A DNA stretch of 64,000 nucleotides from Parcubacteria group bacterium (GTDB taxonomy: Bacteria > Patescibacteriota > Minisyncoccia > Moranbacterales > UBA2206): contig JBAZUU010000003.1 in NCBI GenBank assembly GCA_041661275.1, positions 25,586 to 89,585 of the forward strand, read 5' to 3'. The translations under genes and the position numbers were made by a program. Shown here piece after piece: positions 4,996 through 55,573 of the stretch; position 1 is the stretch's first letter; each line of letters begins with the position of its first letter. The notes under the pieces are model-generated. The model saw nothing but the letters and a program-made list of their open reading frames with translations. It had not been told where the DNA came from and did not search any database.

Positions 4996-6849
4996 ATGAC
5001 AGCGAAAGAACTTCGTCAGAAATATTTGGATTTCTTTGAAAGCAGGGGACATGCAATTGTTCCAAGCGCTTCTTTGATTCCGGAAAATGACCCTACAACA
5101 CTCTTCACCGGTTCGGGAATGCAGCCGATGGTGCCATATCTTTTAGGAGAAAAACATCCATTGGGGACAAGAATTACTGATAGCCAAAAATCTTTTCGGA
5201 CTCAGGATATTGAAGAAGTGGGGGATAATCGGCATACTACTGTTTTTGAAATGTTGGGTAACTGGTCGCTTGGTGATTATTTCAAAAAAGAACAAATAAA
5301 TTGGATGTTTGAATTTTTGACCAATGAATTAAAACTAGATCCTGACCGTATATATGTAACAGTGTTTAGAGGAAATGAAAAGATAGGAATCCCAAGAGAT
5401 GACGAATCAGTAAAAATTTGGCAGGAAGTATTTAAAAAATCCGGAATTGAAGCAAGGCCAATTGATTTTTCTGAGCGGGATGGAATGCAGGGAGGAAGAA
5501 TCTTCTATTACGACGAAACAAAAAACTGGTGGTCGCGCGCCGGAGTGCCAGCCAATATGCCAGTAGGCGAGCCGGGAGGGCCTGACAGTGAAATGTTTTG
5601 GGATTTTGGAGTGGAACATAAGTTTCATGAAAATTCCAAATGGAAAGATGAGCCATGCCATATCAATTGTGATTGCGGAAGATTTTTGGAAATCGGAAAT
5701 AATGTCTTTATGGAGTATGTTAAAACGGAAAAAGGTTTTGAACTTCTGAAACAAAAAAATGTTGATTATGGAGGCGGGCTTGAACGCCAAATCGCAGCTA
5801 AGCTGGATACCCCAGATATATTTCTAACGGATATATTTACCCAAGCTATAAAAACAATTGAAAAACTATCAGGCAAGACATATTCTGGCAATGAAGAAGC
5901 GTTTCGAGTAATCCTGGACCACCTAAGGGCGTCTACACTCTTAATAGGCGATGGCGCATATCCGTCCAATAAGGATCAGGGATATTTTGTCAGAAGGCTT
6001 ATAAGGCGCGCTGTTAGATTTGCGCATAAGTTGGGTATAGAAAATAATTTCTGTTCCCAAATCGCGAAAGTTTATATTGAATATTACAAGGATCCATATA
6101 TAAGTCTTGAAAATGATAAAGAGAAAATTTTTAATGAGTTAGAAAATGAAGAAAATAAATTTAGAAAAACTCTTAAAAAGGGGGAATCTATGATAATAAA
6201 ATTAGAGGCGCACGATGTTACTGGAGAAGCTGCCTTTGATTTATATCAAACTTACGGATACCCAATAGAAATGGTAGAAGAGGCCGCCAAAGAAAGAGGC
6301 CTGAATATAGCAGACAATTTTAAGAATGTATTTCAGCAGGAGCTACAAAAACACCAAGATCTTTCCCGTACCGCTTCTGAAGGAAAATTTAAGGGCGGGC
6401 TGGCTGACCACAGCGAAAGGACTACTCAATTGCATACAACCGCGCATTTGATGCTGGCAGGACTGCGAAAAGTGCTGGGTGATCATATCCATCAGAAAGG
6501 ATCCAATATCAATGGCGAAAGAATCCGTTTTGACTTTTCGCACGGCGAAAAGATGACCGATGAACAAAAAAAAGCAGTAGAAGAATTTGTGAATACGGCC
6601 ATTAAGGCCGCGGTGCCGGTAACCCTGGAAGAAATGAGCCTAGAAGAGGCGCGGGAAGCTGGGGCGGAAGGCGCGTTTGAGGATAAATATGGTGACCGGG
6701 TGAAAGTATATACAATAGTTGGTTTTTCCAAAGAAATTTGCGGCGGCCCGCATGTAGAAAACACCGGCGATATCAAGGGTGTGTTTAAAATCACCAAAGA
6801 AGAGAGCTCCAGCGCGGGTGTGAGAAGGATAAAAGCGGTGGTGGAATAA
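4996..6849 (+). CDS. alaS: Alanine--tRNA ligase (short form lacking C-terminal C-Ala domain)
   Basis: N-terminus LRQKYLDFFESRGH and TGSGMQPM are classic AlaRS catalytic-domain motifs. Editing-domain HTTAHLMLAGLRKVLGDHIHQKGS (HxxxH) and C-terminal GGPH are present. Confidence 0.9.
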   Translation: MTAKELRQKYLDFFESRGHAIVPSASLIPENDPTTLFTGSGMQPMVPYLLGEKHPLGTRITDSQKSFRTQDIEEVGDNRHTTVFEMLGNWSLGDYFKKEQINWMFEFLTNELKLDPDRIYVTVFRGNEKIGIPRDDESVKIWQEVFKKSGIEARPIDFSERDGMQGGRIFYYDETKNWWSRAGVPANMPVGEPGGPDSEMFWDFGVEHKFHENSKWKDEPCHINCDCGRFLEIGNNVFMEYVKTEKGFELLKQKNVDYGGGLERQIAAKLDTPDIFLTDIFTQAIKTIEKLSGKTYSGNEEAFRVILDHLRASTLLIGDGAYPSNKDQGYFVRRLIRRAVRFAHKLGIENNFCSQIAKVYIEYYKDPYISLENDKEKIFNELENEENKFRKTLKKGESMIIKLEAHDVTGEAAFDLYQTYGYPIEMVEEAAKERGLNIADNFKNVFQQELQKHQDLSRTASEGKFKGGLADHSERTTQLHTTAHLMLAGLRKVLGDHIHQKGSNINGERIRFDFSHGEKMTDEQKKAVEEFVNTAIKAAVPVTLEEMSLEEAREAGAEGAFEDKYGDRVKVYTIVGFSKEICGGPHVENTGDIKGVFKITKEESSSAGVRRIKAVVE

Positions 6850-6850
6850 A

Positions 6851-6900
6851 TGTCAGAACCACTGATTATCACATGAACTTGCATGATTTCACTTGATTTT
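6851..6900. repeat. Solo copy of the AACCACTGATT repeat family immediately after the alaS stop
   Basis: cagaaccactgattatcacatgaacttgcatgatttcacttgat shares the core with 11319-11350. Confidence 0.45.
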
Positions 6901-6917
6901 TAAAACTATTAAATAAT

Positions 6918-7259
6918 ATGAAAATTGTTACTGATAAAATTACAATAGCTGAATTAAAAGAAATGTCCGGAAAAATGTTTGGTAATCTGGTCAAGGCTGT
7001 TGTGGATGTGGAAAAAGAAATTATGGCAGTAGATGCCGAACTTCATGCTGACGAAGAGGCCTTGATGTTGGAAAACGGATCAAAGCAGGAAAATCTTTGG
7101 GGGATAAATATTTACCCTGAAATGGAAGGCGAAGATTTTGTGGAATTTGATTCTATGATTAATATCCGTCCGGCGCAAAATAATCGCAGTCGAGGAGTTG
7201 AAAGTGAAGAAATGCAAAAAAGGATATTGGAAATTGTTAATAAGCTTGTAACTAAATGA
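6918..7259 (+). CDS. DUF5674-like small protein
   Basis: 113 aa, MKIVTDKITIAELKEMSGKMFGNLVKAVVDVEKEIMAVDAELHADEE...ENLWGINIYPE resembles the DUF5674 family. Its stop overlaps the next ORF (ATGA). Confidence 0.5.
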   Translation: MKIVTDKITIAELKEMSGKMFGNLVKAVVDVEKEIMAVDAELHADEEALMLENGSKQENLWGINIYPEMEGEDFVEFDSMINIRPAQNNRSRGVESEEMQKRILEIVNKLVTK

Positions 7260-7588
7260 ACATTCAACATAAAGAACTAGCCGGTGGACGGTGGAATAAA
7301 CTTTCTTTTTTTGAGCAGATGGCCAATGTTGGCAGTGAAGTAGAAAGAACAATAAAATGGAAAGACAAAAGTAACAAGGAATATTCTGAACTGGCCTTTT
7401 TTCGCGCGCTTGAACTGCTTGATTTGACTATTGCGGATAAAAAAAATATTTCTAAATTAAGAGAGATAGTCAGAGCGCGGGAGGCTCTGGCAGACTATTT
7501 TGTCTTTGATAATGAATATCACTCAACAGACAAGTCCTGGCAAAATTATTTTTACGCCTTCAGCTTTGCAGCCAGGCTGAATAACTGA
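7256..7588 (+). CDS. Hypothetical protein
   Basis: 110-aa ORF translationally coupled to the upstream gene. Confidence 0.45.
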   Translation: MNIQHKELAGGRWNKLSFFEQMANVGSEVERTIKWKDKSNKEYSELAFFRALELLDLTIADKKNISKLREIVRAREALADYFVFDNEYHSTDKSWQNYFYAFSFAARLNN

Positions 7589-7642
7589 CTTATTAGGTAA
7601 CTATACGATAAAAAGAATGGCCTCAAAAGGGTCTTTTTTCGT

Positions 7643-7671
7643 TTGACAGGCGGATAAAAATATGCTATAAT
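7643..7671 (+). promoter_or_regulatory. Sigma-70 consensus promoter TTGACA-N17-TATAAT
   Basis: ttgaca at 7643-7648 and tataat at 7666-7671 with a 17-nt spacer. It sits upstream of the structured leader and small ORF that precede tyrS. Confidence 0.6.
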
Positions 7672-7708
7672 GGACGGTTAGTTGATCGAACTTTGACAAT
7701 GAAATATG

Positions 7709-7775
7709 CCTACATTCGGCCACTTTTTGCCTTTACTTGGTTATCCATTTTGAGGCAAAAATTGGCTGAATGTGG
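7709..7775 (+). other. Long RNA hairpin (about 21 bp, 20/22 pairs) in the 5' leader
   Basis: cctacattcggccactttttgcc pairs with ggcaaaaattggctgaatgtgg, including one bulge and G-U pairs. Confidence 0.5.
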
Positions 7776-7815
7776 AAGAAAGATAATAAACCCGACAAAA
7801 TTCATAGGAGAAGAG

Positions 7816-7998
7816 ATGAAAAAGAATCTGATGGTAATTTTTGTTTGTGCAGCGCTGCTTTTTTCTGCAGCCGATGTTTTCGCAGTTTCCACGTCCAGAA
7901 CGTTTCTGGGCGACAATATTTCGTTGCCCAAAAATTTTGAAAATGAAACCTCAATCAGAGGTTTTTTATATTTCCAAAAAACCCTTGCTTGCTGGTAA
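7816..7998 (+). CDS. Small secreted protein (60 aa, signal peptide MKKNLMVIFVCAALLFSAADVFA)
   Basis: Strong SD aggagaagag then ATG. In frame within ORF-track ORF 7693..7998. Confidence 0.35.
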   Translation: MKKNLMVIFVCAALLFSAADVFAVSTSRTFLGDNISLPKNFENETSIRGFLYFQKTLACW

Positions 7999-8039
7999 AG
8001 TTTATGTTAAATTTGGCATAAATGTGATAAAATAAATTT

Positions 8040-9260
8040 ATGGTAAAAATAATCACTGACGAAAAACTAGTAGACGAATTTTTGGAACGCGGTGTGGCGG
8101 AAATTTATCCGGATAAAACCACTTTCAAGAAGAAACTTTTGAGCGGAGAAAAAATTCGTGTTTATTGTGGTTTTGATCCGAGCGCGCCGTCACTTCATAT
8201 TGGAAATGCCATTCTTATCAATAAATTATCTGAACTGCAGAAACTTGGTCATGAAGTGATATTTCTTATCGGTGATTTTACCGGAATGATCGGTGATCCG
8301 ACAGATAAATCTGCCGTCAGAAAAAAATTGACACGGGAAGAAGTTCTGGAAAACGCTAAAAATTATCAAAAGGAAGCTTCGGCCTATCTGTTTTTTGATA
8401 AAGAAAATCCAGCGACGGTAAAATACAACAGCGAATGGAATGATAAACTTTCCTATAGGGATCTTATGGAAGTGGCTTCCAATTTTACCGCCCAGCAAAT
8501 GTTTGCGCGAGATATGTTCCAGGAAAGGATAAAAAACGACAAACCGATCTATCTCCATGAATTTCTATATCCTTTGGCGCAAGCCTATGATTCAGTGGCG
8601 ATGGATGTGGATTTGGAAATTGGAGGCAATGACCAGATGTTCAATATGATGTGCGGACGAGATTTAATGAAAGCCATGAAAAACAAAGAAAAATTTGTGC
8701 TGACAATGAAGCTCCTGGCTGACAATGAAGGAAAGAAAATGGGAAAGAGCGAAGGAAATGTAGTTTGGCTTTCCGATAGTCCACAGAATATGTATGGCAA
8801 AGTGATGTCTTGGCCGGACGGAGTCATTGGGATTGGGTTTGAACTTTGTACGAATATTAAATTTAGCGAGGTAAAAGAAATATATGTTGAACTGGAAGAT
8901 GGAAAAATTAATCCTAGAGATCTGAAGATGAAGTTGGCGTATGAAATAACCAAAATTAATCATGGAGAGGAAAAAGCTGACGCGGCGCAGGATTATTTTG
9001 TAAAAACTATCCAAAAAAAAGAAATTCCGGATGATGTTTCTCCGTCGCTGCCTCCTCCGGGAGAAGTTACTCTTGTAGAATTTTTAGTTAGGGAAAACAT
9101 GGCCGAAAGCAAGGGTGATGCGCGTAGAAAAATTGAACAAGGCGGAGTAAGTATCGATGGTGAAATAATTAGAGATTACAAAGGTATTATTGATGAAAGT
9201 TGGGATGGAAAAATTGTAAAAGTCGGAAAGAAAAATTTTCGAAAAATTACGTTTGAATAG
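8040..9260 (+). CDS. tyrS: Tyrosine--tRNA ligase (bacterial type with C-terminal S4-like domain)
   Basis: HIGH motif (SLHIGN), KMSKS-like KMGKS, and a C-terminal S4-like domain (VREN...ARRKIEQGGVSIDGE). Confidence 0.9.
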   Translation: MVKIITDEKLVDEFLERGVAEIYPDKTTFKKKLLSGEKIRVYCGFDPSAPSLHIGNAILINKLSELQKLGHEVIFLIGDFTGMIGDPTDKSAVRKKLTREEVLENAKNYQKEASAYLFFDKENPATVKYNSEWNDKLSYRDLMEVASNFTAQQMFARDMFQERIKNDKPIYLHEFLYPLAQAYDSVAMDVDLEIGGNDQMFNMMCGRDLMKAMKNKEKFVLTMKLLADNEGKKMGKSEGNVVWLSDSPQNMYGKVMSWPDGVIGIGFELCTNIKFSEVKEIYVELEDGKINPRDLKMKLAYEITKINHGEEKADAAQDYFVKTIQKKEIPDDVSPSLPPPGEVTLVEFLVRENMAESKGDARRKIEQGGVSIDGEIIRDYKGIIDESWDGKIVKVGKKNFRKITFE

Positions 9261-9469
9261 CGATAATTCTTGCAAAATTTACTTTTATCTTTTACTTTTT
9301 AATTTTTACCTTGAAAAGTTATCCACAGTTCAAAAAAGGGCATTGACAAATATTCTAAAAGTTTTATATTTAAGACTGTGAGTAGTTTTTAATATAAAAA
9401 TTAATTTAACTAAAAAAACTATCTAGTAATTTTAAATTTTTTACACTGGATATTTTCCTACAATAAAAA

Positions 9470-9949
9470 ATGGAAGAAACAAATGGGGTAGGGACTACGC
9501 AATTTGGTTCCCACCTGACGCTAGACGGTTATGGCGGAGACTTTGACAAATTAAACAGCAAAGAAATAGTGTATAAGTGTCTCGACGAGCTTGTGGAAAA
9601 GTTAGGGATGCATAAGCTGACTGAACCGATGGTGGTGGAATGCGGCGCGGTCAATCCCAAAGATTCCGGAGGCTTTTCCGGGTTCACGATGATCATCGAA
9701 AGCCACATCAGTGTCCACACATTCCCGTATCGGAAGTTCGTCTCCGTGGATGCCTACACCTGCAAGGGCTCAATTGACAAAGAGTTTGTGGTAAATTATT
9801 TTAAAGAAGCATTCGGGCTGAAAGAAGTGGAAATAAACTATATCGTTCGCGGAAAGAAATTCCCGGCAGAAGATATAATCGTCAAAGAAGCTGAAGAAAC
9901 TGAACGAAGCGGCGTTGGAGCGTTGAATCTGCAAACGGAAAACATCTAG
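9470..9949 (+). CDS. speH: S-adenosylmethionine decarboxylase proenzyme (pyruvoyl-dependent, SpeH/class 1 type)
   Basis: Motif ESHISVHTFPY matches the ESH self-cleavage site of small AdoMetDCs. Size is 159 aa. Confidence 0.75.
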   Translation: MEETNGVGTTQFGSHLTLDGYGGDFDKLNSKEIVYKCLDELVEKLGMHKLTEPMVVECGAVNPKDSGGFSGFTMIIESHISVHTFPYRKFVSVDAYTCKGSIDKEFVVNYFKEAFGLKEVEINYIVRGKKFPAEDIIVKEAEETERSGVGALNLQTENI

Positions 9950-10047
9950 CAATTACATAGCAAAAAAAGCGCCGGGTTTCCGGCTCTTTTTAATTGTCGA
10001 AAAACTCTATTTGGTTTATAATAAAGACACAAATACAAAATTTTACA

Positions 10048-11316
10048 ATGGGAATTTTTTCCAAAATTTTAGGTTTTAGCAATATTTCTAACGACTATCT
10101 TTTGTCACTGGATATTGGTACAGAAGTGGTGAAAGCGCTCGTTTTTAAGGTGGACAAGGAAACCGGAGACGGAATTGTTTTGGGTGTGGGGCGGGCACGC
10201 CAGGGATTGGGTGACATGCATAGTGGCGCCGTGTCTGATATTTCCGGCGTCATCGAAAATTGCCGGCGGGCGATCGAAATCGCCAAAACTATGGCCGGAG
10301 TGAAAAAAGCGGAAAAAGCCGTTGTGGGAATTGCCGGAGAACTGGTAAAGGGAACAACTACCACAGTGCACTATGAAAGGATAAAGCCGGAGATCAGGAT
10401 TGATTTGCCGGAATTGAAAAATATAGTCCAGAAAGTCCAGTGGAAAGCTTTTGACCGCATACGCCAGCAATTGGCTTGGGAAACGGGACATAGTGAAATT
10501 GAAGTGAAACTGATAAATGCCGTCATTGTCGATGTCAGGATTGATGGCTATAAAATTACCAATCCGGTCGGATTTCAGGGGCGGGACGTTTCTATCGCTA
10601 TTTTTAACGCTTACGCGCCAATGGTTCATCTGGGGGCTTTGCAAACTATTGCTGACGAATTAAAGTTGCAACTTATAAATATTGCCGCTGAACCATACGC
10701 GGTCGCCAAATCAATGGGTGTGGAAGAAATTACTGATTTTTCTGCCGTATTTATTGATATTGGTGGCGGAACAACAGACATTGCCATTGTTCGCAATGGC
10801 GGATTGGAAGGAACAAAAATGTTCGCGCTCGGTGGCCGGGCTTTTACCAAAAGACTGTCAAGAGATTTAGGCATGAATTTTGAAGAGGCGGAGCTTTTAA
10901 AAATACGCTATGCCGAAGGGAGATTATCGCCTGACGTCAGCGCCAAGATAGAAAAAATTCTGGAAGATGATTGTAATGTCTGGGTTTCGGGAGTGGAACT
11001 TTCGCTTGCTGAATTTGCCGAGGCTGATCTTTTACCTTACCGTTTCTTTTTATGTGGCGGGGGGTCGGGTCTTCCTGGGATAAGAAAAGCGCTTCTTTCT
11101 ACCGCGTGGAGAAAAAATATGCCGTTTGCCAAAGATATTGAAGTTGGATTTCTGCAACCTAAAGACGTGGCCAATATCCATGACAAGACCGGAGCTTTGA
11201 AAGATCCGCAGGACATCACGCCAATGGGGCTGGCCAATCTGGCGCTTGATCTGGTCGGAGAAGAAAAGGTGATGGCGGGGATATTGCGAAGAGCGGTAAA
11301 GATGATACAGAAGTAG
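10048..11316 (+). CDS. ftsA: Cell division protein FtsA (actin-like ATPase)
   Basis: LSLDIGTEVVKALVF (phosphate 1), IAAEPYAVAKS, and FIDIGGGTTDIAIV (phosphate 2) follow the FtsA pattern. ORF track begins at 9994; the ATG at 10048 (MGIFSK) is more likely. Confidence 0.8.
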   Translation: MGIFSKILGFSNISNDYLLSLDIGTEVVKALVFKVDKETGDGIVLGVGRARQGLGDMHSGAVSDISGVIENCRRAIEIAKTMAGVKKAEKAVVGIAGELVKGTTTTVHYERIKPEIRIDLPELKNIVQKVQWKAFDRIRQQLAWETGHSEIEVKLINAVIVDVRIDGYKITNPVGFQGRDVSIAIFNAYAPMVHLGALQTIADELKLQLINIAAEPYAVAKSMGVEEITDFSAVFIDIGGGTTDIAIVRNGGLEGTKMFALGGRAFTKRLSRDLGMNFEEAELLKIRYAEGRLSPDVSAKIEKILEDDCNVWVSGVELSLAEFAEADLLPYRFFLCGGGSGLPGIRKALLSTAWRKNMPFAKDIEVGFLQPKDVANIHDKTGALKDPQDITPMGLANLALDLVGEEKVMAGILRRAVKMIQK

Positions 11317-11490
11317 TCTGAACCACTGATTATCACTGATTTTCACATGAAGACACATGAATTTTGATAAGCAAGTTAGCATTTTAAAAAGCTAAAAGCC
11401 ATTTATTAAAAATCAGAGAAATAAATAAAAAAATGAACACCACTAAACTTCACGTGAAATCAGTGTTTTCGTGTGAGAATCAGTGGTTCA
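11317..11490. mobile_element. MITE-like element bounded by imperfect 40-nt inverted repeats (GTCTGAACCACTGATT...)
   Basis: Left end gtctgaaccactgattatcactgattttcacatgaag. Right end cttcacgtgaaatcagtgttttcgtgtgagaatcagtggttcagac is its imperfect reverse complement. The interior is AT-rich. Related solo copies lie at 6851-6900 and 48041-48058. Confidence 0.45.
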
Positions 11491-11497
11491 GACAATT

Positions 11498-14310: not shown

Positions 14311-14400
14311 AACGATGCTAATCCACGAATAAAGGCGAATCTGCGAATTGCTAATAATTCGCAATTAGCGGATTAGCGTATATTAGCAGATTAGCATCAC
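14311..14400. repeat. Array of short GCTAAT/ATTAGC and CGAAT repeats forming an imperfect palindrome between rpsM and rpsK
   Basis: gatGCTAATc...GCTAATaattcgcaATTAGCggATTAGCgtatATTAGCagATTAGCatc. Confidence 0.5.
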
Positions 14401-14408
14401 TTAAAATT

Positions 14409-16999: not shown

Positions 17000-17395
17000 A
17001 TGAAACCGATCAGTCGAAAATATCATTTGTTTAATGCCGAAGGGAAGACTCCTGGACGAATGGCGACAGAGATCGTAAAGGTTCTCCGTGGCAAGAACAA
17101 GGTTGATTGGACTCCACATATTGATGCGGGAGATTTCGCCGTGGTTATCAATTCTGATAAGATAGCGGTTCTTGGTGGAAAAGAAAGCAAAAAAACCTAT
17201 TATCATTTTAGCGGATATCCGGGAGGAATCAGCGCCATAAAATTAAAAGACCAGATTGTGAAGGACTCAAGAAAAGTTATCAAGGACACTCTTTATGGAA
17301 TGCTTCCGAAAAACAAACTGCGCGACCGGATGATGACGAGACTTTTAGTGTATAAAGATGATAAGCATACACATAAGATAGAGATAACGCATTAA
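17000..17395 (+). CDS. rplM: 50S ribosomal protein L13
   Basis: GRMATEIVKVLRGKNK...DAGDFAVVIN is the L13 pattern. Confidence 0.9.
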   Translation: MKPISRKYHLFNAEGKTPGRMATEIVKVLRGKNKVDWTPHIDAGDFAVVINSDKIAVLGGKESKKTYYHFSGYPGGISAIKLKDQIVKDSRKVIKDTLYGMLPKNKLRDRMMTRLLVYKDDKHTHKIEITH

Positions 17396-17506
17396 TTTAA
17401 AATTTTAAATTTAGAATTTTAAATCAAATCTTAATTTTAAATTTAAAATTAAATCATTTAAAATTCATTTCAAATTTCAAATTTAGAATTTAAAATTATT
17501 AGATAT

Positions 17507-17956
17507 ATGGTTACAAAGAAAGTTAAAGAAAAAGCAGAACCCAAAGAAGAAGCAAAAGCTTCCCGGTATTTTTACGGTCTCGGAAAAAGAAAAACAGCTA
17601 TTGCGCAGGTGCGGATCTACGTAGCCGGGAAAGAAGGAAAGGGAGTTGTGGTCAATGAAAAATCATTTGAAAAATATTTTCCGATCGCGCGTCTACGAGA
17701 TCTGGTGAAAGAGCCCTTAGCTTTGGCCGGACAAGACGCCAAGTTCGATGTCAGCGCCAGAGTTCACGGTGGGGGAGTGAATGCCCAAGCGGAAGCTATC
17801 AGACTGGGAATTTCTCGGGCGCTTATTGAATTCAACCCCGAACTGCGAAAATCACTCCGAGACAATGGATTTTTGACCCGTGATTCCAGGATTGTGGAAC
17901 GAAAAAAACCAGGTTTGCGAAAAGCCCGAAGAGCGCCACAGTGGGCAAAACGCTAA
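17507..17956 (+). CDS. rpsI: 30S ribosomal protein S9
   Basis: C-terminal GGGVNAQAEAIRLGISRAL...RKKPGLRKARRAPQWAKR is S9. Confidence 0.9.
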   Translation: MVTKKVKEKAEPKEEAKASRYFYGLGKRKTAIAQVRIYVAGKEGKGVVVNEKSFEKYFPIARLRDLVKEPLALAGQDAKFDVSARVHGGGVNAQAEAIRLGISRALIEFNPELRKSLRDNGFLTRDSRIVERKKPGLRKARRAPQWAKR

Positions 17957-45782: not shown

Positions 45783-47114
45783 ATGTTAAAAGTACTGAAG
45801 ATGTCAATGATTTTGGTTTGCTCGATTTTTTTTGTCACGTCAGTCGATGCCGGCGGCAAGCCGGAAAACAGGCCGGCTCCAGCGCCAAGAGCAGCTCCTG
45901 CGCCTCGACAACAAGCGCCAAGACAGCAGATGGCACCAAGGCAACAAGCGCCAAGACAGCAGATGGCACCAAGGCAACAAATGGCGCCAAGGCAAGCGCC
46001 CCAGCAGCGTCCTCAGATGCAGCAGCAACGTCCACAGGGTTTCGGGCAACAGAAATCCTTCGGCAATCAGGGATCTGCTGGCAATAGATTTGGCAACCAG
46101 GGAGCCAATGATCGAGGTAATAGATTCGGTCAGCAGGGATCCGGAAAAGCCGGTAGTACAGGAAGTAGATTTGGCAACCGGGGATCCGACGGTAGCAAAT
46201 TCAGTCAGCAAGGAACTGGCAAGTCTGGCGACAAAACCAGTAGCAAATTTGACCATCAAGGTGCCCAGGGAACTGGAAAGGCCGGTAGTAAATTTGGCCA
46301 GCAAGGAACTGGTAAAGCCGACAGTAGATTTGACAGGCAAAAAACCGGAAAATCTGGCAACAAGCTTGGAAAAACCGGTGAAAAATCCAGTGTCCAGGGT
46401 GCTGGCAAAGGTAAGCAGCCTGACACGGGAAAAATCGCCTCGGACAAAAACAAGCCGGGTGGCGAGAAGATCGGCGGTAAGAATCAGCCGATTGCCGGAA
46501 AACCATCTATGGATGGCAAAAAGCCTATGGACGGAAGAATGTCCGGCCAGAAAATGAACAGACCCAACAGATCCGAGCTGGGCGAGAAAATGAAGAGATC
46601 GCCCAACAAAGAGGCTCTTCGCGACGCGAAGATGGGGCGAAAAGCCGAGCGCGCGAAATTCAGGGACGATCCTAAGCATCACAGACTCAGAGAGCATGAG
46701 CACTCGATGGTGCGCAGTAGCTTTGAATCGCATTCCTGGAGTTACTCAGAATATTCCTACACCTCCACCACTTTTTATGAATCATATGGATATGCACCAG
46801 CACCGTGGTGCTTCGAACTGGCGCCGTATTACGGCGTTTGGGACACAACGTATCTTGGATTCGTTGTAGCCAATGCCGTCGAAATGGAAAGTTCCATTTT
46901 TTATTACCATCACAGAGGGGAAGAGGAGTTGATGGCATGGCGCGCAGAAATGGATCGATTGGCTCAGCAGGATGCTGAACTGGCCGCGCAACTAGCGGTG
47001 CTGGATGAACAAGCGCAGCTGCTGGCAAGCCAAGGCATTGCGGTCAACCCAAACTATGTTCCTGATGCTCCTGTTTTTGCTCCGGAAATTGTGGAGCAAA
47101 TGCAATTAGAATAA
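45783..47114 (+). CDS. Secreted low-complexity repeat protein (APRQQ and FGQQGTGK repeats)
   Basis: Signal peptide MLKVLKMSMILVCSIFFVTSVDA. Tandem peptide repeats. GC-rich relative to the window. Confidence 0.55.
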   Translation: MLKVLKMSMILVCSIFFVTSVDAGGKPENRPAPAPRAAPAPRQQAPRQQMAPRQQAPRQQMAPRQQMAPRQAPQQRPQMQQQRPQGFGQQKSFGNQGSAGNRFGNQGANDRGNRFGQQGSGKAGSTGSRFGNRGSDGSKFSQQGTGKSGDKTSSKFDHQGAQGTGKAGSKFGQQGTGKADSRFDRQKTGKSGNKLGKTGEKSSVQGAGKGKQPDTGKIASDKNKPGGEKIGGKNQPIAGKPSMDGKKPMDGRMSGQKMNRPNRSELGEKMKRSPNKEALRDAKMGRKAERAKFRDDPKHHRLREHEHSMVRSSFESHSWSYSEYSYTSTTFYESYGYAPAPWCFELAPYYGVWDTTYLGFVVANAVEMESSIFYYHHRGEEELMAWRAEMDRLAQQDAELAAQLAVLDEQAQLLASQGIAVNPNYVPDAPVFAPEIVEQMQLE

Positions 47115-47875: not shown

Positions 47876-48034
47876 GACTCTCTCCTTGTTTATAGGTAGT
47901 AGGAACTATTGAAATGCGATAAAAAATGATCTTTCGACTTTTGCTCAATGTATCACCGCTTGGAAAAAGTGTCAAACGAGACAATCCGTGGTTATGATAA
48001 TTTTAATTTTCTTACGGTTCATAGCCTTGCTTAT

Positions 48035-48105
48035 TTGACGAACACCACTGATTTTCTCTATAATACACTCATGCAGGAACTTTGGTGGAAAAGGACAAAA
48101 AATAT
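48035..48105 (+). promoter_or_regulatory. Promoter (TTGACG-N18-TATAAT) plus partial copy of the repeated RNA element, serving as 5' leader of the DUF4143 gene
   Basis: ttgacg 48035-48040 and tataat 48059-48064. Transcribed sequence acactcatgcaggaactttggtggaaaagg is homologous to 49463 and 55428. The spacer contains the aacaccactgatt repeat core. Confidence 0.45.
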
Positions 48106-49434: not shown

Positions 49435-49469
49435 TTCAATTTTATTAATAGGAGTGCTATAATACAACT

Positions 49470-49587
49470 ATGCAGGAATTTTGGCAGAAAAAGATAAAAA
49501 TACATATAATATTTGAGTCGCTGGAGAGTTATAACGAAAGCGTATATTTTTAGATTTTGAAAGCCGTCCATTTGGACGGTTTTTTTG
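49470..49587 (+). ncRNA. Candidate small RNA (copy 1 of repeated element) with own promoter and intrinsic terminator
   Basis: Promoter ttcaat-N17-tataat (49437-49463). Terminator ccgtcc-attt-ggacgg plus ttttttt (49564-49587). About 85% identical to 55435-55551. Confidence 0.45.
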
Positions 49588-49669
49588 TAAAAAAACAGAC
49601 AATTTAGAAGTTGACAAATAAACCAAACAGGTATATAATAACCAGTTATCATAACGTCTTTAAATAACT

Positions 49670-55181: not shown

Positions 55182-55434
55182 GACATATATGGATAATTCA
55201 GTAATACTTTGTAGCGCATGTTTGGGATGGAAAACATGGTGTTTTTGCAGTAGCTACTAGCGAGAAAATAACTAGCTCGGTCACTTTCTCGTTAGAACCT
55301 ACCGTATGGCAAGAGCCAAGCTATCCAGAGCCAGGAGAAATCGTTCTTCTTGGTAATCTTCGTAAGAAGCGGGCTTGATCAAAAATGAGCCACATGTGTT
55401 TGACTAACAGAGCTTGTTTTTCGTATAATACACT

Positions 55435-55551
55435 TATGCAGGAAATCAGGAATAAGAAGATAAAAATACATACAATATTCGAGTCGCTCGAGAATCAAAA
55501 CGAAAGCGTATATTTTTAGTTTTTGAAGGCCGTCCATTGGGGCGGTTTTTT
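55435..55551 (+). ncRNA. Candidate small RNA (copy 2 of repeated element) with promoter TTGACT-N18-TATAAT and intrinsic terminator
   Basis: ttgact 55399-55404 and tataat 55423-55428. Terminator gccgtcc-attg-gggcgg plus ttttttt. Its G-U replaces the A-U of copy 1, keeping the stem. Confidence 0.45.
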
Positions 55552-55573
55552 TGTCGGAAAAGATTGAGGATTG

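Follow-up and report, generated by a model that had tools for sequence, protein, structure and literature searches.

In Coxiella burnetii, the intervening sequence (IVS) of the 23S rRNA (428–444 nt) has terminal inverted repeats that form a 28-bp stem, and RNase III excises it; tandem heptamers are located just before the ATG of a small open reading frame (ORF) in its loop (PMC4990558). In a survey of PD-(D/E)XK nucleases, the function of the family PF13366 is given as unknown (PMC3424549). Here, we describe a family of periodic repeat arms present in a 64,000-nt stretch of contig JBAZUU010000003.1 of a Parcubacteria group bacterium (assembly GCA_041661275.1), which is referred to as a whole as the window; in other genomes the same arms enclose a nuclease gene of the GxxExxY family (PF13366/TIGR04256). 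We consider it likely that a small palindromic selfish element is present in the window as gene-less copies, namely a solo arm and a complete 176-bp palindrome. With about the same confidence, we favor the reading that these copies are non-autonomous derivatives of an IVS-like, nuclease-carrying selfish element, whose nuclease would have mobilized them.

The 11-mer AACCACTGATT, used as an exact-match probe for the window arms, was found at 6857 (+), 11321 (+), and 11478 (−) and at no other exact site in the window; when up to one mismatch was allowed, eight window sites were found, as compared to 1.1 expected. A profile hidden Markov model (HMM) trained on 178 arms from other genomes and run over the window with nhmmer identified exactly three arms (6850–6898 (+), 11314–11362 (+), and 11495–11450 (−); E-values of 4e-12 to 2e-10), bearing out the original prediction that copies of one repeat follow the alaS and ftsA stop codons and that an inverted copy lies nearby. 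In each arm, TCWGAAC precedes four sub-repeats (CAC(N)TGAWW) of ~10 nt each. The solo arm (arm A) begins 3 nt downstream of the alaS TAA (6847–6849), the ATG of the next gene being located at 6918, and contains TCAGAAC followed by CACTGATT (6860), CACATGAA (6870), CATGATTT (6882), and CACTTGAT (6890); it presented no hairpin of its own (fold z = −0.5). A candidate right-hand partner of this arm, AATCAGAGGTT near 7953, was rejected as an ordinary terminator hairpin. Arm B begins with the nucleotide immediately after the ftsA TAG (11314–11316) and contains TCTGAAC followed by two copies of CACTGATT and two of CACATGAA, with starts at 11324, 11334, 11344, and 11354, i.e., with an exact 10-nt period. 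Arm C, read on the minus strand, contains TCTGAAC followed by CACTGATT (11485), CACACGAA (11475), CACTGATT (11465), and CACGTGAA (11456), and the conserved ATG (11498) of a gene encoding a 646-aa protein lies 5 nt past its end (11492). Arms B and C are inverted and form one long hairpin (−59.8 kcal/mol; z = −6.5; −52.1 kcal/mol for the element folded alone); the inverted pair originally reported between ftsA and the next gene is thus a single palindrome with an AT-rich core, as proposed, but with a size of 176 bp rather than 174 bp. The loop of this palindrome has ~80 nt, as compared to the usual 5–30 nt, and it is the loop position that is occupied by the GxxExxY gene in full-length relatives; in the window loop, neither a recognizable ORF remnant nor any convincing resemblance to the nuclease gene was found.

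Two other features of the original prediction did not hold. The degenerate copy reported to form a promoter spacer at 48041–48058 was missed by the profile at E < 0.01 and matches the 11-mer with one mismatch; roughly one such match would arise by chance, and the motif has no counterpart in the paralogous promoter at 55399. In this part of the window, paralogous genes share duplicated promoter and 5′ regions (48034–48101 and 55399–55466; 49458–49595 and 55424–55561; 72–85% identity), which accounts for the promoter context of the spurious hit at 48043. Likewise, the GTG at 11483, described as an alternative start overlapped by the right repeat, is an artefact of ORF listing; an ATG-CAT-CAA start, corresponding to 11498 in the window, is conserved in all relatives.

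A 20-nt pattern, TCWGAACCACTGATTNTCAC, was scanned over one genome per species, with ~9 hits expected by chance. This pattern was found in at least 115 stretches in 52 assemblies, 48 of which contained profile-detectable arms; these 48 assemblies contain a total of >200 arms, a single genome accounting for up to 21 of those recovered among the matches listed. A genome-wide search in both orientations had been proposed as a check; the family is genome-wide and clade-wide, with copies in both orientations. Nearly all carriers among the matches listed are Moranbacteria or other Patescibacteria, and clear copies outside Patescibacteria were found in a Saprospiraceae genome, a Synechococcaceae metagenome-assembled genome (MAG; 58% GC), an LCP-89 MAG, and others. 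Copies usually take the form of a compact palindrome of 76–117 bp (median 96) with two arms of ~45 nt and a short AT-rich loop; 58 compact arm pairs of 76–120 bp were found in other genomes, and the recovered copies also include ~60 solo arms and some wide pairs. The arms contain four TGA(TT) boxes spaced 9–11 nt, the conserved element end is (T)TGTCWGAAC, with extended termini that often read TG...CA, and the hairpins of compact elements are very stable (~−39 kcal/mol). Searches of plasmid and phage collections with the consensus element as query yielded nothing similar, the pattern was present in one viral contig only, and no description of the element was found in the literature. In four genomes, a 21-nt GC-rich palindrome, CCTGCCTCGCCGGCAGGCGGG, or variants thereof, is nested inside arms between CCACTGA and TT and looks like a site-specific mini-insertion within the element. 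In addition, arm-containing units occur in tandem beside GxxExxY genes in L142 (878–1505) and L201 (60–1290), with periods of 104 nt and 84 nt, respectively, indicating that elements can amplify locally in a minisatellite-like manner (L-numbers are the labels of the loci compared; L001 lies on the source contig of the window, a 101.5-kb metagenomic contig of a Parcubacteria/Moranbacteria-type organism).

To characterize the neighborhood of the elements, 825 ORFs of 115 element-bearing loci were clustered for recurrent neighbors. No transposase family was recurrent among these ORFs, and one small ORF family was always located between two arms ~490 bp apart. The same arms flank a gene encoding a 128-aa GxxExxY protein with a PD-(D/E)XK fold in at least eight loci of at least six Moranbacteria assemblies. 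Arm pairs enclosing the nuclease gene were found in L018, L021, L031, and L071, and likewise in L205, L209–212, and L213; L205 and L209–212 contain two paralogues located at unrelated loci of one genome. The units in these loci share one arrangement (host stop codon, left arm, ATG, 128-codon ORF, stop codon, right arm, ~5 nt, and host ATG), and an alignment of four such units presented similarity that spans exactly TCWGAAC to GTTCWGA, with unrelated flanks. The enclosed genes match TIGR04256 at E = 5e-39, above the curated cut-off of the GxxExxY family, and show intact D...ExK residues within the PD-(D/E)XK fold. Between copies, the synonymous divergence (dS) is saturated, the ratio of nonsynonymous to synonymous divergence (dN/dS) is ~0.05–0.08, and the 15-nt arm termini are identical, indicating that the gene and the arm ends are both constrained; the enclosed nuclease gene is under strong purifying selection. 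Arm B of the window matches best to the left arm of the L018 element that carries the nuclease gene.

The association between arms and nuclease was also found in metagenomic homologues. A metagenome scan with the nuclease alignment yielded 80 loci at 60–87% identity, 72 of which had usable flanks. An inverted repeat between upstream and downstream flanks (z > 4) was present in 44 of these 72; GTCTGAAC, with up to one mismatch, was found in at least one flank in 53 homologues, as compared to a background of 4% of control windows, and in both flanks in inverted orientation in 32. The metagenomic arms contain ~4 periodic boxes, the box being lineage-dependent (TGATT, GGATT, GAATT, or CAGAT), and the nuclease ATG is often located inside the last arm box; arm similarity increases with protein identity (Mantel p = 0.001). 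More distant homologues presented other sub-repeats in their arms, such as ACAGAA (L095) and AGCGAAT (L098). In the cultured species Bacteroides finegoldii (plasmid NZ_OY725952.1; L216 1420–1905), the GxxExxY gene (WP_032839887.1) is located between inverted arrays of three CACAGAGGA units, and this element lies flush between radA and a gene encoding a FAD-dependent protein. A gene of the family PF05635 (23S_rRNA_IVP/bAvd) adjoins the nuclease gene in L209–212 (L209 3432–3815), and in L213 (4800–5320) a PF05635 gene flanked by inverted AGAGAGTT arrays is located near the nuclease gene in the same glycosyltransferase operon, which suggests a second small-ORF family with the same element architecture.

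Comparison with relatives, another check proposed originally, showed that L119 and L120 lack the element at both window sites. The ftsA junction contains only a 19-nt spacer in L119 (FtsA 96% identical) and an 11-nt spacer in L120 (86%), contains a 116-bp copy in L055 (82%), and is occupied by different AT-rich palindromes in L123 (AGTAAAA boxes) and L086 (TTTTCAA boxes). The window and L086 each have a solo arm at the alaS junction (in L086, the TCTGAAC of the arm supplies the alaS stop codon), and L055, L119, and L120 have none there; over their 21-kb syntenic regions, L119 and L120 contain zero arms. Arms are more similar within a genome than between genomes (p = 1e-42), and the nearest arm was found in the same genome for 47 of 209 arms, as compared to 7.8 expected. 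These observations point to a family that is gained and lost across genomes, and both window copies appear to be recent gains, with no demonstrated host function.

If the nuclease-carrying element is the source of these copies, the arm sub-repeats may represent a binding-site array for the nuclease, which would drive or maintain the spread of both full-length and gene-less copies, either by homing or by transposition. In an operon transcript, the long arm–arm stem may be cut by RNase III, as for the 23S rRNA IVS; such cutting would explain the tolerated insertion inside essential operons. A wider proposal, which we put forward tentatively and with clearly less assurance, is that GxxExxY (PF13366) proteins might be the mobility or homing nucleases of an unrecognized class of minimal selfish elements with a length of ~440–490 bp, one gene of ~125 aa, inverted four-box arms, and no target-site duplication. 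Such elements would give rise to gene-less palindromes of ~100 bp, would reside in gaps of essential operons in many phyla, and would be harmless via RNase III; rRNA IVSs with their PF05635 ORFs might then represent an rRNA-resident branch of the class.

Several observations weigh against a nuclease-driven selfish element. Searches of the 64-kb window and of its relatives' flanks with tblastn and HMMs detected no GxxExxY gene, and a trans-acting partner in the window genome would thus be hypothetical. No biochemical activity of any PF13366 protein was reported in the literature searched, and, to our knowledge, a lone PD-(D/E)XK nuclease has no known strand-transfer or integration chemistry; the nuclease gene may have settled in the loop as cargo instead of being the driver. 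The junctions in the operons for ATP synthase subunits (atp), 2-oxoacid:ferredoxin oxidoreductase (POR) subunits, and ABC-transporter/HlyD proteins are occupied in several species, and such recurrence could mean host-level selection instead of selfish spread. Because the motif itself served to ascertain the loci, the frequencies are biased, and in the single comparison of filled and empty sites the sequences are too diverged for exact boundaries.

As a rival explanation, the copies could be host cis-acting RNAs, i.e., intercistronic hairpins selected for termination, for mRNA stability or processing similar to that by repetitive extragenic palindromic (REP) sequences and bacterial interspersed mosaic elements (BIMEs) in E. 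coli, or for translation coupling, with the nuclease as an occasional passenger. Copies are indeed found almost only at the 3′ ends of genes (97 with co-directional, 19 with convergent, and 10 with divergent neighbors among 126 callable elements); they start 0–5 nt past the stop codon or contribute that stop themselves, as the TGA of TCTGAAC or of CACTGATT, and end ~5 nt ahead of the next ATG. Many are located within operons, with the atp, POR, and ABC/HlyD junctions recurring; the stability of the hairpins and a bias among solo arms alone (28 sense and 9 antisense) also fit a host RNA. However, empty orthologous spacers have only 11–19 nt, and the snug fit between stop codon and ATG therefore needs no functional explanation. 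Over the variable 30 nt, complementarity between arms of the same element (10.1) did not exceed the mean for arms of different elements (11.9); it is the periodic motif that is conserved and not the base pairs. Sense-strand RNA folds were not favored (15 vs. 30; p = 0.017), arm types presented no orientation bias relative to transcription (22:17:12), and Rfam searches of the window and of 18 element-bearing loci identified only tRNAs at the gathering threshold, sub-threshold matches being generic miRNA-like hairpins. A structured RNA under pairing selection was rejected because there was no complementarity excess, no sense-strand advantage, and no Rfam hit. A simple terminator, which was among the options listed originally, was rejected as well: right flanks read caattATG or ttatt, with no T-run behind the hairpin that would yield a U-tract, a terminator scan placed no terminator at the window arms, copies occur in both orientations and, within operons, 5 nt before an ATG, and separate canonical terminators are located beside or inside some copies. 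As both window sites also lack the element in the closest relatives and the same termini recur in unrelated phyla, a host RNA seems to us an unlikely explanation.

The remaining rivals appear less probable still. A classical MITE (a miniature transposable element with inverted repeats), i.e., an internal-deletion derivative of an insertion sequence with a DDE transposase that is mobilized in trans, would account for small size, terminal inverted repeats, many copies, insertion polymorphism, and termini that often read TG...CA, and a candidate parent of the IS110 type is present upstream of the window. This Transposase_20 gene (L001 2051–3394) adjoins dprA ~1.6–3 kb upstream of window position 1 and has no link to the repeats; IS110-family elements, moreover, are not known to carry terminal inverted repeats. 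Target-site duplications, the search for which had also been proposed originally, were found at no tested offset or length, with no excess of direct flank repeats among 70 elements (k = 2–5; boundary offsets 0–4). The recurrent ORFs of the 115 loci included no DDE or HUH gene, no plasmid or phage element matched, and between arms only the gene for the GxxExxY nuclease was found, all of which makes a classical MITE improbable. We regard as even less probable a family of REP sequences or REP doublets (REPINs) mobilized by a REP-associated tyrosine transposase (RAYT; similar to the Y1 transposases of IS200/IS605). The inverted doublets of ~100 bp, the extragenic location at gene 3′ ends, the vertical persistence, and the genome-specific homogenization agree with REPINs, but a single arm is a run of direct sub-repeats rather than a palindrome, no GTAG or CGTC head is present, neither the recurrent ORF clusters nor the sampled Pfam scans for the 115 loci revealed a family similar to Y1 transposases, and the repeats extend across phyla, which typical REP families do not. 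Similarity due to chance or low complexity, or operator sites of a local transcription factor, as would fit the promoter spacer of the original prediction, can hardly be upheld: the spacing of one sub-repeat per helical turn is typical of protein-binding arrays, and the 48043 site lies between −35 and −10 hexamers, but the profile does not detect this site, the paralogous promoter lacks it, and the arms follow stop codons instead of being located at promoters. Chance as the source of the window arms had already been refuted by the excess of near matches in the window, by profile E-values down to 1e-12, and by the number of arms in other assemblies. Taken together, the tests of pairing, strand, polymorphism, duplication, and homogenization lead us to reject as explanations a plain terminator, an RNA selected for pairing, and a classical MITE of the DDE type; among the options listed originally (terminator, REP-like family, or miniature transposable element), a repeat family or miniature element is thus retained, although not one of the classical MITE type.

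The features of the family are listed in Table 1. The genes next to the window copies encode a class II alanyl-tRNA synthetase (AlaRS), an FtsA-like protein, and the 646-aa protein, which has no Pfam match; no rRNA is present in the window.

Table 1. Coordinates of arms, palindromic element, and nested palindromes (window positions, except for the L-numbered loci).
Feature	Sequence	Position	Strand	Remark
Solo arm A	window	6853..6899	+	nhmmer E = 4e-12
Left arm B of palindromic element	window	11317..11361	+	E = 2.2e-10
AT-rich central region (loop) of palindrome	window	11362..11440	none	~80 nt
Right arm C	window	11441..11492	−	E = 2.5e-11
Whole palindromic element (176 bp), filling the gap between ftsA and the downstream gene	window	11317..11492	none	arms B + C
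Nested 21-nt GC-rich palindrome	L012	7046–7066		
Nested 21-nt GC-rich palindrome	L068	374–394		
Nested 21-nt GC-rich palindrome	L061	~3190		
Nested 21-nt GC-rich palindrome	L213	6108–6128		

Other palindromes and repeats were also observed in the window. A second palindromic family is represented in the gap between rpsM and rpsK (14311–14405), where tandem GCTAAT/GCGAAT boxes form an RNA hairpin (−34.6 kcal/mol); this family is present at the same junction in L120 and absent in L119, and its boxes resemble the AGCGAAT arms around the L098 GxxExxY gene. An AT-rich palindrome of TTTAAAT-type sub-repeats (17385–17507; −17.6 kcal/mol), located just 5′ of the ATG at 17508, may represent a third family of the same architecture, with similar elements at the ftsA junction in L086 and L123. 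An unrelated, GC-richer inverted repeat (1155–1303), with 31-nt arms that are 87% complementary and 87 nt apart, is located between a gene encoding a sigma-70-region-4 protein and the next gene. The interval between alaS and tyrS (6900–8040) is a variable hotspot that contains genes encoding a DUF5674 protein, a 110-aa ORF, and a small secreted protein, the latter with its own perfect sigma-70 promoter (7643–7671); in the same interval L119 carries a 148-aa ORF on the other strand, L123 carries a 193-aa ORF, and L120 and L086 carry nothing. In-frame tandem repeats of 27–33 nt in a high-GC stretch (0.50) at 46080–46408 probably encode a Gly/Ser/Gln-rich repetitive protein segment.

On its own, a repeat family in one window would be ordinary; it is the link to a nuclease family, together with the parallel to IVSs, that makes this case notable. 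The presence of the nuclease gene between the same arms suggests a role for the large, uncharacterized GxxExxY family, for which at least 8000 candidates were matched and whose members are named only “GxxExxY protein” by NCBI; a defined DNA partner would provide PF13366 with a directly testable function, and cultured carriers, such as B. finegoldii, make experiments feasible. If true, the link would explain conserved-looking intergenic palindromes of the streamlined Patescibacteria, which could otherwise be misread as regulatory RNAs, terminators, or alternative starts, and would tie them conceptually to the long-unexplained rRNA IVSs. The elements also matter for annotation, as they provide stop codons to some host genes (−5 and −13 classes) and create spurious upstream starts (e.g., the GTG at 11483).

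A number of described systems share individual features with this family. Resemblances to parS, IHF, DUS, Tn3, Tn7, and Mu ends served as leads only, none of which was supported by a test. DNA uptake sequences (DUS/USS) occur ~1 per kb and also within genes, unlike the three arms per 64 kb found here, all of which are intergenic. Integron attC sites are imperfect palindromes of 57–141 bp that are located right after a stop codon and before the next gene, with outer ends AAC...GTT as in the element; however, TCWGAAC/GTTCWGA (TCTGAAC/GTTCAGA) violates the R and Y positions of RYYYAAC/GTTRRRY, and the copies have no integrase or cassette array, their neighbors being alaS, ftsA, atp, and POR genes. 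The Correia/NEMIS, RUP, and ERIC-type MITEs are likewise short, non-coding, multi-copy, intergenic sequences with terminal inverted repeats that are co-transcribed, present insertion polymorphism, and can form long RNA hairpins, but the element differs from them in the lack of target-site duplication and of an identified DDE parent, in a putative parent of ~490 bp with a 128-aa nuclease, and in its periodic sub-repeat arms. Similarly, REP/BIME and REPIN–RAYT systems consist of extragenic doublets at gene 3′ ends and within operons, with tens of copies homogenized per genome; the element differs in that its arms are not individually palindromic, carry no GTAG/CGTC tag, have no RAYT found with them, and share termini across phyla. 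Free-standing and intron-borne homing endonuclease genes with a PD-(D/E)XK fold (I-Ssp6803I, PF11645; listed in PMC3424549) resemble the element as small selfish genes for a restriction-fold nuclease with polymorphic sites and horizontal transfer, but they are not bounded by inverted sub-repeat arrays and have no gene-less palindromic offspring, and PF13366 is a family distinct from PF11645.

By analogy of organization, the closest described architecture is that of the IVS of bacterial 23S/16S rRNA genes. The two differ in location, as all copies of the element lie between protein-coding genes and none in rRNA helices, and in coding content, as the ORF of the element encodes a PD-(D/E)XK nuclease and that of the IVS a four-helix-bundle S23p/IVP protein; the terminus GTCTGAAC and arms with a ~10-nt period are not described for IVSs. 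Both are nevertheless small selfish inserts (~100–750 bp for IVSs) with complementary termini that form a long stem, with short tandem repeats 5′ of the ATG of a small loop ORF, with ORF-less variants, and with a patchy distribution that suggests horizontal transfer, and genes for PF05635 IVS proteins are found beside GxxExxY genes and carry analogous inverted sub-repeat arrays.

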